A stretch of 64,000 nt of DNA from Candidatus Aminicenantes bacterium (GCA_017883285.1 JADGNV010000098.1:244-64243); one strand, 5' to 3'; numbered from the stretch's first letter, positions 2,556-15,756 are shown. The notes: generated by a model not told the origin, from the letters alone. Made by a program: numbers and translations.

Positions 2556-2592
2556 TAGCGTAGGTTAAGAAGAGATTAAAAGGCCTTATCTC

Positions 2593-3954
2593 TTAAACTA
2601 AACCCTGCTCCATCATGGCCCGGGCGACTTTTAGAAAGCCGCCGATGTTGGCGCCGTTGACATAATTCCCGGGCGTTCCATAAGTTTCGGCCGCTTGGAC
2701 GCAGGTCTTGTGGATGTTTTTCATGATCTGATGGAGACGCTGGTCAACTTCCTCTCGCGTCCAGCTCAGGCGCATGCTGTTCTGGCTCATCTCGAGTCCA
2801 GACGTCGCAACGCCTCCCGCATTGGCCGCTTTGCCGGGGCCGTAAAGAATTTTTGCGTCGATAAAGACATCAACACCTTCCGCCGTAGTCGGCATATTGG
2901 CGCCTTCCGCGACGACATAGATGCCGTTCTTGACGAGGTTCTTGGCGTCTTTGCCGTTGATCTCGTTTTGCGTGGCGCTCGGGAAGGCGCAGTCCGCTTT
3001 ATGAGTCCAAAGCGGATCATGATCCTGGTTAATAGCAAAGGGAGTATATGTCGCGCCCTTGAACTTATCGGCATATTCCTTGATGCGACCGCGCCGGACG
3101 TTTTTCAGGTCCATGATAAAGGCCAGCTTTTTCCCATCGATGCCGGCCGGATCATAAACGTATCCGTTGGAATCGGATAAGGTGACGGCCTTGCCCCCCA
3201 ATTGATTGATCTTTTCAATCGTGTATTGGGCGACATTTCCGCTGCCTGAGACCAAGCAGGTCTTTCCTTCCAGGGTCTGATTCCGGGTCGTCAACATTTC
3301 CGAGGCAAAATAGACGGCCCCGTATCCCGTGGCTTCGGGCCGGATGAGAGAACCGCCCCATTCCAGTCCTTTTCCGGTGAGGACGCCCGTGAATTCGTTT
3401 CTCAGCTTTCTGTACGTGCCGAAGAGGAAGCCGATTTCACGCCCGCCGACGCCGATGTCTCCCGCCGGAACGTCCGTGTCGGGGCCGATATGGCGGAAGA
3501 GCTCGCCCATGAAGCTCTGGCAAATCCGCATGATCTCGTTGTCGCTCTTTCCCTTCGGGTCGAAATCGCAGCCGCCCTTGCCCCCGCCCATGGGCAGGGT
3601 CGTCAGGCTGTTTTTGAACACCTGCTCGAACGCGAGGAATTTGAGAATGCCGAGCGTGACGCTGGGGTGGAAGCGAAGTCCGCCTTTATAAGGGCCGATG
3701 GCGTTGTTCATCTGGATCCGATAGCCCCGGTTGACATGGATTTCTCCGGCGTCGTCCATCCAGGGAACGCGGAACATGAACACGCGGTCGGGCTCGACGA
3801 TGCGTTCCAGAATCTTGGCTTTGCAATACTCGGGATGCTTCTCAAGGACCGCGGCCAGGGAATTCACGACCTCATGGACGGCTTGATGGAATTCGGGCTG
3901 GGCGGGATTCTTGGCGATGACTTCGGACATAAAATCGGACACATAATTACTCAT
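2593..3954 (-). CDS. gdhA: NADP-specific glutamate dehydrogenase (hexameric ~50-kDa type)
   Basis: Family hallmarks are [27 protein letters not shown] (catalytic Lys present) and [10 protein letters not shown]. The start is moved to the internal Met (MSNYVSDF...) because AAGGAG lies 6-7 nt upstream of the ATG at 3952-3954. Confidence 0.95.
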
Positions 3955-4199
3955 GCAGTTCTCCTTTTTATGATTTGGACCGAGATTGAAAGCTAGATAC
4001 CTCCATACTTCACTTCTCAAATACACAACAATTGTTATAAATTTATTTGGTTTTTATTTTGATTTTAATAAAAAAGTCCGGCCCTGATTAGGCTGCGGGC
4101 GAAAGCATTCCAGATTTCTGGAAGCCGATGAAGATGCGCTGGATTCGACGCGTCAACGATCCGAGGGTGAAGACCTCAGAGTCCGCTGCAAAAGCTTTC

Positions 4200-13794: not shown

Positions 13795-15454
13795 TTTCGA
13801 GGATGACCTTGCAGCGTTGCCGGATCGAGTCCGCATAAAGCGTCGCTGGACGAGGAAACGTCAAAAGGGACAGGGGCTCATCGGGCTGGGGCGAGGAAAA
13901 AAGCCACGGATCCAATTTGTCCCGACCGGGCATAATATAGCCGTAAATGATGTTGTTGCCCATCAGGTTTGTTAAGAAATGCGTTCCCTGCGTCCCATAC
14001 ATCCGGGTTTGAAGCCTTTTTTGGTCTTCGTCAAAGCCGCCTTGAATCATATAAAGAAAATGACTGCCATAGATCCCGCCGGTCAAGTAGCCTTCTTCCA
14101 GGAGAGGCTCCGCCCGACCGGCGATATCCACGCCGTATTCAAAAATGGCCGCCGCCCGGTCGACGTCCTTGTAATCCACGGAGAGCCCCCAATCCCGATT
14201 TTTGCTGCCCAACCGGCCGGGAACGATCAGGATGTAGCGCTCCCGGGCCTCCAGCATTTGACGGTTGATGGCGGCGATTTTGCCGCAGACCGGATCATGC
14301 AGGTCCTTCGTATAAGTGAAGGGAGAAACAACGACCGCATATTTAATCCCCCTGACGATGCCGTGTCCTTGAGAATTCGTGATCGCCAGAAACGTATGGC
14401 GGGGCTTTTGGGGAATTTGAAAAGACTCGAGTTTGAGCTCCGGCAGCGGCGTGAGCTGAACGATGGAAAACGTCCCGTCTTCTTTGTCCTTCTTGGCGAA
14501 GTTGATGTTGAAAACGAATTCGATCTGAAAATAGGGCGTGATGTGGGAGGCGATCGTTTCCATAATCTCGGCGAGGCTGGTTTTGAAACGGAAATGATCG
14601 TTTTGAATGAGCTCTTCGATGGTGATGAAGTTGTTGTGGAGCCCCAGCAATTTGATTTTATGGAAATTGGCGAACCGGATGTGCAATTTTTTCATGGTTT
14701 CCATTTCCTCTCCCTTCAAATCTCTATTCTTGGTCATGTCCAGAGCATAGAAATATTGCTGACCGTTCCCGATCTGGAGCAATTTGAGAGGAAGGGGGTT
14801 TTTGATGGTCGCCATGGAAATGACGGGAAAGTCATCCAGGACGGTGGCATACCCATGGCCGAAGGCGATCCGGGCGAAGCCTTCTGCCGGATCCTGCGTT
14901 TTCAGGGCATGGGGAAAATAGGAATTTGCGACTCCGGAGATATAGGGATAATAACAGGGCCCGGCCAGCGTATCATCGAAAATGCCGGGGATAGGGTTCA
15001 AAATGATCGCCATTTTTTCCCGGCTTGAAGGAGGCTGCTTCCGCTTAAAATCATGATAGATGTGGGAGATCGCCTGGTGGACTTGTTGAACGCGCATATG
15101 ATAATCCGGGTGATTGTTGGGCAGCATGTGGGATGTGTATTCTCCGGCATGAATGAGGGCCGCACCTCGGGCGGACGTCGCGGCTTCATTCGTCGCCGAG
15201 GAGCGAACGCCGATGGGGGCATCCCCCAATTCGGCTATAATCGAAGCCACGATATCCGATTCTTTTTTGTCGAATTTTCCGCCGCGGTCCATAAAACGGT
15301 CGTAGAATATAGTCGTGAGAATGCGCGTTTTGAGCTTATGGGCCTTCGGGATCGGACATTCATTGATTTTGGCCAGGCCGAGCCCTTTCCCGCCCGGAGA
15401 CCCCTCGCCGTAGATTTTCACGTCCCCGATTTTTTCAACGATTTTTAGACTCAT
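13784..15454 (-). CDS. PEP/pyruvate-binding (PPDK_N ATP-grasp) domain protein, paralog 3
   Basis: 556 aa with GEGSPGGKGLGL, VRSSATNEA and MAIILNPIPG...ISGVANSY. The C-terminal domain has VPGRLGS...IYGSHFLYM and TQGTHFLTN. No GG.T.HAA-type swivel motif is present. Confidence 0.85.
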   Translation of the reverse strand: MSLKIVEKIGDVKIYGEGSPGGKGLGLAKINECPIPKAHKLKTRILTTIFYDRFMDRGGKFDKKESDIVASIIAELGDAPIGVRSSATNEAATSARGAALIHAGEYTSHMLPNNHPDYHMRVQQVHQAISHIYHDFKRKQPPSSREKMAIILNPIPGIFDDTLAGPCYYPYISGVANSYFPHALKTQDPAEGFARIAFGHGYATVLDDFPVISMATIKNPLPLKLLQIGNGQQYFYALDMTKNRDLKGEEMETMKKLHIRFANFHKIKLLGLHNNFITIEELIQNDHFRFKTSLAEIMETIASHITPYFQIEFVFNINFAKKDKEDGTFSIVQLTPLPELKLESFQIPQKPRHTFLAITNSQGHGIVRGIKYAVVVSPFTYTKDLHDPVCGKIAAINRQMLEARERYILIVPGRLGSKNRDWGLSVDYKDVDRAAAIFEYGVDIAGRAEPLLEEGYLTGGIYGSHFLYMIQGGFDEDQKRLQTRMYGTQGTHFLTNLMGNNIIYGYIMPGRDKLDPWLFSSPQPDEPLSLLTFPRPATLYADSIRQRCKVILENGR

Positions 15455-15756
15455 CGTCCTACGAGAATCTTAGGTGAAAACCCGCATTTAGTAAAGCATC
15501 GGCCATTACCCGTCGACCCATGGAAAGATTTTTGCTTGGCAAGATACAATGCCTCGCGTTTCCGGCCGCTTGGCGCTGATGATCCACCAGGCGAACATTT
15601 TTTTCTGGGAGATTGTAACGCGCCCGAGGTTCGCCTTCGCCCGGGCGGCGCTCTGCAAAGAGTTCTTAGGCGCCGCGGCTGAGCGCTGGGTCCTATTTCG
15701 GGAATCCCGGGAGGGGGCTATAATAGGGGGGCGGTGCCGCGGGGAGGCCGCGAGGG

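Follow-up and report, generated by a model that had tools for sequence, protein, structure and literature searches.

The question raised by this locus is what purpose is served by a compact block of eight genes, two of which encode members of the glutamate dehydrogenase (GDH) family, in the genome of a Candidatus Aminicenantes bacterium. The block occupies 2593-15454 of the window, which is the whole stretch of 64,000 nucleotides that was analysed (GCA_017883285.1 JADGNV010000098.1:244-64243). Besides the canonical gdhA and a GDH-like gene, it was found to contain three paralogs with an ATP-grasp domain of the PPDK_N type followed by a histidine-bearing module (PPDK1, PPDK2 and PPDK3; the module is called the His module below), the second of which ends in a nucleotidyltransferase (NTase), together with a metallophosphoesterase, an OmpR-type response regulator and a protein of 481 residues (REC481). 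A sequence-only reading of the window had proposed a signalling or modification system acting as a two-component-like relay without a histidine kinase, an interpretation that as a whole was partly supported. The block is read here as the Aminicenantes-type copy of a widespread GDH-centred regulatory cassette, sensing glutamate/2-oxoglutarate and working with covalent signalling steps, and this reading is given a little better than an even chance of being right. Compared with the widespread core of the cassette, the copy in the window is distinguished by a GDH partner without the catalytic lysine, by a divergent canonical gdhA and by an added receiver arm (PPDK3, REC481 and the OmpR-type regulator).

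The association of these genes is far beyond chance, because the same gene order recurs across many metagenome-assembled genomes (MAGs) and phyla, and the neighbourhood check suggested in the sequence-only reading found that the gene set is kept together elsewhere. Among the 84 loci recovered with the 481-residue protein, the full cassette was found in identical order in about 30, and the genes for PPDK3 and REC481 were adjacent in about 80; MAGs with the full order belong to Aminicenantes, Eisenbacteria and Desulfaltia. PPDK2-NTase was found in at least 591 species-level genomes, with carriers in the Zixibacteria, Ignavibacteriota, Bacteroidota, Planctomycetota, several classes of Acidobacteriota, Calditrichia, Eisenbacteria, Fermentibacteria, Gemmatimonadota and others. 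When 80 loci of PPDK2-NTase were compared, a GDH-like gene was located directly upstream in 67, PPDK1 was present in 58, a convergent phosphoesterase gene in 37 and the PPDK3/REC481 pair in only 2. The core is thus composed of the GDH-like gene, an optional PPDK1, PPDK2-NTase and the convergent phosphoesterase, without any receiver, and the receiver arm was added in certain lineages only. The claim that the system is primarily a two-component-like relay fell with this widespread receiver-less core; the claim that its output is directed toward the glutamate/2-oxoglutarate node stood, by the GDH gene of the 67 core loci and by a DNA box, described below, upstream of gdhA and of the OmpR-type gene. 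A minimal form, consisting of GDH followed by PPDK2-NTase with or without the phosphoesterase, was found in the cultured Rosettibacter firmus and Stygiobacter electus.

Natural fusions of three kinds were found, namely PPDK1 with PPDK2, PPDK2 with the NTase, and a REC481-like protein with a PPDK-like protein. Single polypeptides joining PPDK1 to PPDK2-NTase were 1484-1654 residues long and contained two PPDK_N domains and two His modules (P0241, P0242, P0243, P0253 and P0505). The fusions of REC481-like and PPDK-like proteins were about 1000 residues long, and their first ~400 residues were homologous to the 481-residue protein (hhalign 9e-12 and 2.6e-9) across both of its alpha/beta domains and the start of its C-terminal domain, followed by the presence of PPDK_N and the module. 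These fusions fill the slot of the PPDK3/REC481 pair beside canonical gdhA in Acidobacteriota-type cassettes, where fusion and gdhA lie on the same strand in L114, L116, L137 and L176; gdhA directly flanks the unfused pair in L013, L023 and L079. PPDK2 variants of about 920 residues (P0246 and P0250; 5119-7881 of L042 and 2682-5444 of L072) apparently without the C-terminal NTase were also observed, in loci whose genes are arranged differently. In about 14 of the 84 loci the PPDK3/REC481 pair was adjoined by a glutamate-synthase-like cluster (9738-15716 of L183; also in L025, L041, L046, L064, L065, L075, L078 and L080), containing a NuoE-like protein, a 1052-residue fusion of NuoF and GltD-like parts, a Fer2_4 protein and a 525-residue Glu_synthase protein. 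The cluster flanks the pair where the pair is separate from the core, and it forms an additional link to glutamate metabolism.

The two GDH-family proteins of the window were found to differ in their active sites. The gdhA product matched NCBIfam NF006929 with 756 bits (cut-off 536) and the Pfam domains ELFV_dehydrog and ELFV_dehydrog_N, and its catalytic GGGKGG is intact; its start is likely at 3954, because the orthologs (453 residues) and the gene callers point there. The GDH-like protein matched ELFV_dehydrog with 219.8 bits and ELFV_dehydrog_N with 164.5 bits and remained under all NCBIfam GDH cut-offs. It had been taken for a pseudo-GDH from the sequence, and its active site was indeed found to contain Asn107 in the place of the catalytic lysine and Glu147 in the place of the general-base aspartate, together with the substrate and cofactor residues K71, R75, K95, N355, S362 and GxG, which are kept and are invariant among the orthologs. 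The catalytic lysine was replaced (by N, S, H, Y or T) in 25 of 29 close orthologs; of the 66 orthologs from the wider core, 58 have it. A canonical gdhA was found within 10 kb of 25 of the 29 orthologs without the lysine, as against 4 of the 62 that keep it (Fisher 3e-14, a value uncorrected for phylogeny), and at least two of the four exceptions to this link are locus-edge artefacts. Other replacements (G, A, M and Y) were found in the Acidobacteriota-type loci, and this difference suggests that the lysine was lost more than once. Since the dead GDH-like protein has retained 70-85% identity, an intact binding pocket and translational coupling to PPDK1/PPDK2, it must presumably have a non-catalytic role in the system. 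A mixed hexamer of the dead and the active GDH is unlikely because the two belong to different subfamilies, with 30-34% identity.

The ATP-grasp domain PF01326 was matched by PPDK1 with 124.7 bits and by PPDK2 with 195.5 bits, whereas PPDK3 reached 25.2 bits, under the Pfam cut-off of 27. Of the three PPDK_N paralogs that the sequence-only reading had named, PPDK1 and PPDK2 therefore stand by Pfam and PPDK3 by paralogy only, through its relation to PPDK1 (BLASTP 1e-20) and hhalign. All three are related through the ATP-grasp domain and about 180 further residues (BLASTP 1e-38 and 1e-20; hhalign 98.7, 97.8 and 93.9%). In PPDK1 the residues K38, R129, E135, D136, E376, E378, Q397 and R399 were invariant in 54 orthologs, together with the Arg, Glu and His of the module, and the catalytic residues of PPDK2 were invariant or nearly so in 74 orthologs. 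The paralogs had been described as being neither PpsA nor PPDK, and this was sustained: PF00391 and PF02896 found no match in any of the three, even at E=10, the swivel motif GGxTxHAA[IV][IV]AR was absent from the window and from the 84 loci, and in the PPDK-like proteins the last domain is the His module or the NTase. An ordinary PpsA or PPDK was accordingly excluded, as neither the swivel domain, nor its motif, nor a phosphoenolpyruvate (PEP)/pyruvate barrel is present. PDB profile matches of PPDK2 were to rifampin phosphotransferase (5hv6, 8e-7) and PEP synthase (2ols, 1e-6), and also to PPDK, all through the ATP-grasp domain only, and PDB sequence and profile searches with PPDK1, PPDK3, REC481 and the phosphoesterase returned nothing useful.

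The C-terminal module of the three paralogs was found to contain invariant Arg, Ser, Glu and His residues, arranged as a G-R-[WL]-G-S motif and a Glu, followed by G-[ST]-H-F-[FL]. The module of PPDK2 contains R793, S796, E819 and H836, and that of PPDK3 contains R414, E439 and H492 with the additional invariant H364 and H465 (hhalign of the module 97.8%). No Pfam model was found for the module; a HMMER search with it against the full library gave 2018 clusters at 50% identity, and PPDK_N was located directly upstream of the module in 35 of the 35 long representatives examined. Within the N-terminal residues 1-340 of PPDK2 (7395-8420), Cys24 and Cys60 are invariant, and the motifs WQY and FLKEE..LL are present. 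This region, which the sequence-only reading had labelled a sensor, is GAF-like by eye; Pfam, the PDB profile search and a one-sequence GAF profile confirmed neither assignment. Redox or metal sensing might be indicated by the pair of invariant cysteines. Homology between this region and the C-terminal domain of REC481 was not found.

The NTase at the C-terminus of PPDK2 matched PF01909 with 33.3 bits (cut-off 21) and was found to contain conserved G968 (74/74), S969 (71/74), D980 (72/74), D982 (68/74) and D1025 (74/74). Its match to the MntA family model, at 22.8 bits, was under the cut-off of 60, and no HEPN gene was found in the cassette. The phosphoesterase matched PF00149 with 39.6 bits, and its metal ligands D9, H11, D37, N85, D86, H191, H239 and H241 were kept in 37 orthologs. 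As the catalytic and module residues are conserved, the NTase, the ATP-grasp domains, the module and the phosphoesterase are likely to be active, and the NTase would be the writer and the phosphoesterase the eraser of a modification.

REC481 belongs to a family of more than 600 homologs of uniform length and 58-89% identity, none of which was found to carry a Pfam domain or a name, and a Pfam search at E=10 gave no match to it, including to PF00072 and DUF5752 (PF19027). Its AlphaFold (AF2) model (pLDDT 89.8, pTM 0.89) contains two alpha/beta domains followed by a helical C-terminal domain, and Foldseek retrieved PleD and the REC-REC proteins of 3luf as well as SIS tandem domains, at E values of about 1e-4. 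Between receiver and SIS the residue pattern of domain 2 decides: D166 and D167 follow beta-1, D231 ends beta-3, S265 ends beta-4 and K282 follows beta-5, and all were invariant. Against a diverse profile of 68 receiver domains taken from the fetched loci, domain 2 was matched by hhalign with E 1.6e-5 and a probability of 79%, with D166, D167 and D231 in register and with controls at or below 0.9%; it was not detected with a narrow OmpR-only profile or with plain HMMER (local REC HMM, E 0.11). The domain carries an insertion of about 20 residues before beta-3 and a hairpin after D231. Domain 1 was not detectable as a receiver and is without the pocket residues. In 24 fused relatives at 20-28% identity the receiver residues were again conserved, with E/D166 in 24/24, D167 in 20/24, and D231, S/T265 and K282 each in 23/24, and the fused homologs gave weak DUF5752 (PF19027) matches (23-26 bits, cut-off 23) in the region aligned to residues ~300-391 of REC481. 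Domain 2 is therefore predicted to be a divergent receiver with an acceptor site. Of the two receivers with acceptor aspartates that had been claimed, the OmpR-type protein was recovered by Pfam, and REC481 was missed by Pfam and is put forward on its model, fold, profile match and invariant residues. PPDK3 and REC481 are predicted to be functionally coupled, because their genes are adjacent in nearly all of the 84 loci and are fused in other lineages.

No HisKA/HATPase gene was found among the eight cassette proteins, nor an HPt domain, and in 14 of 18 full-cassette loci no histidine kinase was found within 10 kb, in agreement with the claim that the block has no kinase of its own. The sole histidine-kinase-like open reading frame (ORF) of the window is located at 36083-37360, about 20 kb away, with its own regulator beside it. 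It forms part of an ordinary pair of histidine kinase and response regulator at 34686-37360 (-), and a further receiver-domain ORF is present at 43472-44665 (-), so that these genes stand about 20-30 kb from the cassette.

The OmpR-type protein was found to contain PF00072 (89.2 bits) followed by PF00486 (83.5 bits) and remained under every NCBIfam equivalog cut-off; its gene was present in 25 related loci. The intergenic region between gdhA and the GDH-like gene is AT-rich (40% G+C) and contains conserved blocks well above the shuffled expectation. One of these is the GDH-like operon's -35 region, whose CTTGAC keeps a constant distance to the ATG of the GDH-like gene in related loci. A box with the consensus TTATTTGGnTTnnnTTnKGATT was also found, which contains two TTKGG half-sites 11 bp apart, a spacing that is the geometry of OmpR/PhoB sites, followed by AATAAAAAA. 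Of the 18 intergenic regions from loci with an OmpR-type gene, 17 carry the box, at a distance of 76-88 bp upstream of the gdhA ATG, as compared with 0 of 4 from loci without the gene. Two matches were found in the 64-kb window against 0.11 expected, and 0 of 100 shuffles reached two. Of 25 related loci, 16 have a box in front of the OmpR-type gene, and across 1.27 Mb of related loci its matches concentrate upstream of gdhA and of the OmpR-type gene. The OmpR-type regulator is thus predicted to control gdhA and its own gene through these boxes. The intergenic region measures 348 bp here, as against about 200-285 bp for most relatives. Its additional ~100 bp (4085-4195) are GC-rich and lie between the box and the GDH-like promoter, and in the related contig L179 a 59-residue ORF was called at the equivalent place (13222-13401). 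This extra segment could be a small ORF, a small RNA or the remnant of an insertion.

For the working of the cassette the biochemical steps are all inferred, as are the modified targets and the direction in which the signal flows. The GDH-like protein, probably together with the N-terminal region of PPDK2, would read the glutamate/2-oxoglutarate/NAD(P)H state, the GDH-family member being catalytically active where the cassette is minimal and serving purely as a sensor in the window. The ATP-grasp/His-module enzymes would turn this state into marks by passing a phospho-His intermediate to a partner, the NTase would add a nucleotidylylation mark, and the phosphoesterase would take marks off again. 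The receiver arm of the window would relay the state to the OmpR-type regulator and from there to gdhA and the regulator's own gene, so that the two receiver proteins of the block would probably set gdhA transcription. A bolder form of this working, which was regarded as tentative, is that ATP-grasp proteins of the PPDK type with the His module are a second, kinase-independent class of phosphodonors for receivers, gated by a GDH pseudo-enzyme sensor, nucleotidylylation and dephosphorylation and setting gdhA expression, and that in the receiver-less core they control GDH covalently.

Between PPDK3 and REC481 the evidence fits signal flow in both directions, and each direction was considered possible rather than probable. 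In a phosphorelay without a kinase, PPDK3 (perhaps also PPDK1 or PPDK2) would use ATP to autophosphorylate the histidine of its module, and the phosphoryl group would go from there to Asp231 of REC481 and onward, or in parallel, to the OmpR-type regulator, so that a histidine kinase would be replaced in this way. All characterised PPDK_N enzymes use a phosphohistidine, and a receiver domain with a phospho-His donor catalyses its own phosphorylation. Consistent with this relay, whose probability was judged to be rather low, are the module histidine that is invariant in all three families, the translational coupling, adjacency and fusion of PPDK3 and REC481, the strong purifying selection on the receiver quintet in the relatives at 20-28% identity, and the conservation of two receivers in a cassette that lacks a kinase and in most loci has none nearby. 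However, the module is not detectably swivel- or HPt-like, PPDK3 is without three ATP-grasp residues kept by PPDK1 and PPDK2, and the receiver-less core means that a relay cannot be the general function of the family. In the fusions, moreover, the receiver region precedes the enzyme on the N-terminal side, as is usual for a response regulator with an enzymatic output and unlike a hybrid kinase; this suits control of the enzyme by the receiver no less well than phosphorylation of the receiver by the enzyme. Such an order (REC-REC-DUF5752-PPDK_N-module), in which the effector follows the regulator at the C-terminus, speaks instead, together with the three ATP-grasp substitutions of PPDK3 and the core without receivers, for the receiver as input and the enzyme as output, where REC481 would be an atypical response regulator that switches PPDK3 after receiving a phosphoryl group from acetyl phosphate or an unlinked kinase. 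The PPDK-like proteins would then be dedicated modifiers of GDH, by phosphorylation and/or nucleotidylylation, and the phosphoesterase would reverse the modification, as with AceK and GlnE. A separate PPDK-like neighbour goes with each GDH type (PPDK1/PPDK2 for the 428-residue GDH; the fusion or PPDK3/REC481 for gdhA), the two-gene unit of Ignavibacteriota, an active GDH with PPDK2-NTase, fits an enzyme and its dedicated modifier, and the active sites of NTase and phosphoesterase are intact. This explanation is nevertheless doubtful, as a dead GDH copy kept at high identity with its binding residues would be unexpected for a mere regulated catalyst, two receivers occur without a conserved kinase nearby, and no candidate modification site on GDH was identified.

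A metabolic explanation, in which the PPDK-like proteins are small-molecule dikinases like PEP synthase, rifampin phosphotransferase and PigC, was considered improbable. They would act on a GDH-linked metabolite, the NTase and phosphoesterase would carry out further steps, and the regulators would only control the operon. Characterised PPDK_N enzymes all phosphorylate or activate small molecules or glucans, the best partial NCBIfam matches of the PPDK-like proteins are PigC, PEP synthase and rifampin phosphotransferase, and most core loci encode a catalytically competent GDH. Such a pathway does not account for the dead GDH retained in the cassette, for receivers fused directly to the enzyme, or for a sensor-like N-terminal extension and an NTase of the MNT type, whose characterised relatives modify proteins, and no transporter or further pathway enzyme was found conserved nearby. 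Least probable by far is a mobile defence or toxin-antitoxin island that has come to lie beside gdhA by chance. The G+C content of the block (0.526 against 0.63 in the flanks) and weak PADLOC domain-level matches to candidate families, of the NTase to PDC-S09 and of the phosphoesterase to PDC-S10, would fit such an island, but the matches span only 35-50 residues of generic folds, neither a HEPN partner nor an integrase or mobility gene at the borders was found, most related loci show little GC contrast, and the association with GDH is invariant across phyla.

The GDH-centred regulatory cassette remains the preferred reading, and several observations weigh against it. The link between lysine loss and the presence of gdhA is an uncorrected statistic, and that the box is missing from loci lacking the OmpR-type gene might be due to these loci being more divergent. 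Roughly half of the PPDK3/REC481 pairs are separate from the remaining cassette, so that the two modules may work independently. PPDK3 keeps K23, R84, E90, E312 and Q333, but A91, Q310 and T335 replace the three missing ATP-grasp residues, and the protein may be non-catalytic. A phospho-His role of the module histidine is suggested by its position and invariance only; the module was also tried as a divergent swivel domain, with a profile of 14 sequences (E. coli PpsA, PtsI and 12 plasmid-borne homologs), and was rejected, as hhalign gave at most 1%, equal to the controls. No relative of solved structure was found for any member beyond the ATP-grasp domain. The AF2 model of PPDK3 is poor (pLDDT 58) because the alignment is without diversity, and Foldseek gave with it only weak ATP-grasp matches to rifampin phosphotransferase. 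A kinase encoded elsewhere could moreover still serve the receivers.

The gene content, coordinates, convergent stops at 10583-10586 and overlaps reported in the sequence-only reading were confirmed in the window, and the features are collected in the table. PPDK2-NTase and the phosphoesterase gene are convergent with a 4-nt overlap at these stops, the PPDK2 ATG (7395) lies 8 nt inside PPDK1, and the genes for PPDK3 and the 481-residue protein share an 11-nt overlap. On the minus strand the order of transcription from 15454 is PPDK3, REC481, a hairpin with a promoter-like site, the OmpR-type gene and the phosphoesterase. The flank genes (PAP2 and an ABC-2 transporter) are functionally unrelated to the cassette. 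No integrase or other mobility gene was found at the block borders, and neither an Rfam element nor a riboswitch was found in the control regions. The block contains 52.6% G+C as compared with ~63% in the flanks, which suggests for the low-GC island here either lateral acquisition or strong compositional constraint; in the related loci (L001-L081) the GC of the cassette was 0.52-0.59 regardless of a flank GC of 0.44-0.63.

Table. Positions in the window of the cassette genes, their predicted parts and the candidate control sites.
Feature	Position	Strand	Remarks
gdhA, canonical NADP-specific glutamate dehydrogenase	2593..3954	-	453 aa; mechanical ORF to 4026
Candidate OmpR-family box 1	4043..4064	+	88 bp upstream of gdhA ATG
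Promoter-like site of the GDH-like/PPDK1/PPDK2 operon	4200..4228	+	TTGACA-17-TATTTT
GDH-like pseudo-enzyme	4303..5589	+	428 aa; Pfam ELFV domains
PPDK1	5645..7402	+	PPDK_N ATP-grasp ~34-409; His module ~405-585 (R480, E505, H520); start per gene callers 5672
PPDK2-NTase	7395..10586	+	1063 aa; alternative start 7365
PPDK2-NTase, N-terminal region			~340 aa; conserved
PPDK2-NTase, PPDK_N	~8427-9533
PPDK2-NTase, His module	~9537-10094
PPDK2-NTase, MNT-type NTase	~10269-10409
Calcineurin-like metallophosphoesterase	10583..11446	-	287 aa; PF00149
OmpR/PhoB-type response regulator	11473..12183	-	receiver + winged helix; PF00072, PF00486
Candidate OmpR-family box 2	12275..12296	-	~92 bp upstream of the OmpR-type gene
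Terminator-like hairpin behind the REC481 gene	12311..12323	-	then promoter-like site 12281-12254 for the OmpR-type gene
REC481	12349..13794	-	pseudo-receiver ~20-150; predicted divergent receiver ~156-298; helical DUF5752-like C-terminal domain ~300-481
PPDK3	13784..15454	-	556 aa; divergent PPDK_N ATP-grasp and His module with insertion

GDH stands where carbon and nitrogen metabolism meet and is central to peptide fermentation in Aminicenantes, Ignavibacteriota, Zixibacteria, Acidobacteriota and their relatives. Glutamine synthetase is served by GlnE, GlnD and PII, and a literature search found no dedicated covalent or signalling system for bacterial GDH. A cassette present in hundreds of species would fill this gap and may be a new form of control at the carbon/nitrogen junction in bacteria. 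The tight link between the loss of the catalytic lysine and the arrival of a second GDH would make it a natural example of the change from enzyme to sensor, and if the His module does feed receivers, a new entry point into two-component signalling would be added. The family members carry the public names 'pyruvate, phosphate dikinase', 'pyruvate, water dikinase' and 'PEP/pyruvate-binding protein' (P0394-P0497); this misnaming is a likely source of false PPDK and PEP synthase calls and can corrupt the metabolic reconstruction of uncultured phyla. The cultured carriers Rosettibacter firmus, Stygiobacter electus and Melioribacter sp. make the question directly testable.

The components of the cassette belong to known superfamilies, and their combination, the His module and the coupling to GDH match no described system; the literature search, which extended to PPDK_N with receivers, GDH AMPylation and Melioribacter GDH, found no description of the cassette, of the His module, of the 481-residue family or of DUF5752. 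With PEP synthase, PPDK and rifampin phosphotransferase the cassette shares the ATP-grasp domain, whose ATP/Mg residues are kept in PPDK1 and PPDK2, followed by a His-bearing domain as in PEP synthase and PPDK. It differs from these enzymes in having no swivel domain and no TIM barrel, and in having GDH, receivers, an NTase and a phosphoesterase as partners in the place of a small-molecule substrate domain. With two-component systems and PleD it shares the OmpR-type regulator, a tandem of pseudo-receiver and receiver with an acceptor site, and a candidate autoregulated direct-repeat box, whereas HisKA/HATPase and HPt are missing and the partner of the receiver is an ATP-grasp protein. In the nitrogen phosphotransferase system EI-Ntr (PtsP) carries a GAF sensor, and it resembles the cassette in that a member of the PEP-utilising superfamily, working through phospho-His and bearing its sensor at the N-terminus, serves nitrogen signalling rather than metabolism. 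An uncharacterised 'nitrate cluster' of Desulfovibrio contains a histidine kinase, a response regulator, a protein with PPDK_N and mobile domains and a phosphatase (PMC4001038). It resembles the cassette in the PPDK_N protein that stands beside a receiver and a phosphatase, but both the EI-Ntr and the Desulfovibrio proteins have the canonical mobile His domain and no GDH partner, and the Desulfovibrio cluster has its histidine kinase.

GlnE and GlnD modify glutamine synthetase and PII, and AceK modifies isocitrate dehydrogenase; like them, the cassette has a large multi-domain modifier beside a central enzyme, an NTase-fold domain and an opposing hydrolase, but only the generic NTase fold is held in common, the target would be GDH, and the chemistry is proposed from the genes. 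MntA of the HEPN-MNT systems AMPylates its protein partner and shares with the NTase the G-S ... D-x-D ... D signature, PF01909 and a weak match to the MntA model, whereas the cassette NTase is fused to the C-terminus of a 1000-residue ATP-grasp protein and has no HEPN partner. Pseudo-dehydrogenase regulators are comparable on the side of the GDH pair. RocG/GudB with GltC in B. subtilis are trigger enzymes, in T. thermophilus an inactive GdhA forms a hetero-oligomer with GdhB and APRTh, and the alanine-dehydrogenase-like NAD+ sensor ADLP has lost its catalytic lysine (bioRxiv 10.1101/2025.10.31.685773). The cassette shares with these systems a dehydrogenase homolog that is without the catalytic lysine, has kept its ligand-binding residues and would serve regulation, as well as a paralog pair of dead and active GDH, and it differs from them in that its pseudo-GDH is coupled to ATP-grasp and NTase proteins rather than to another GDH subunit.

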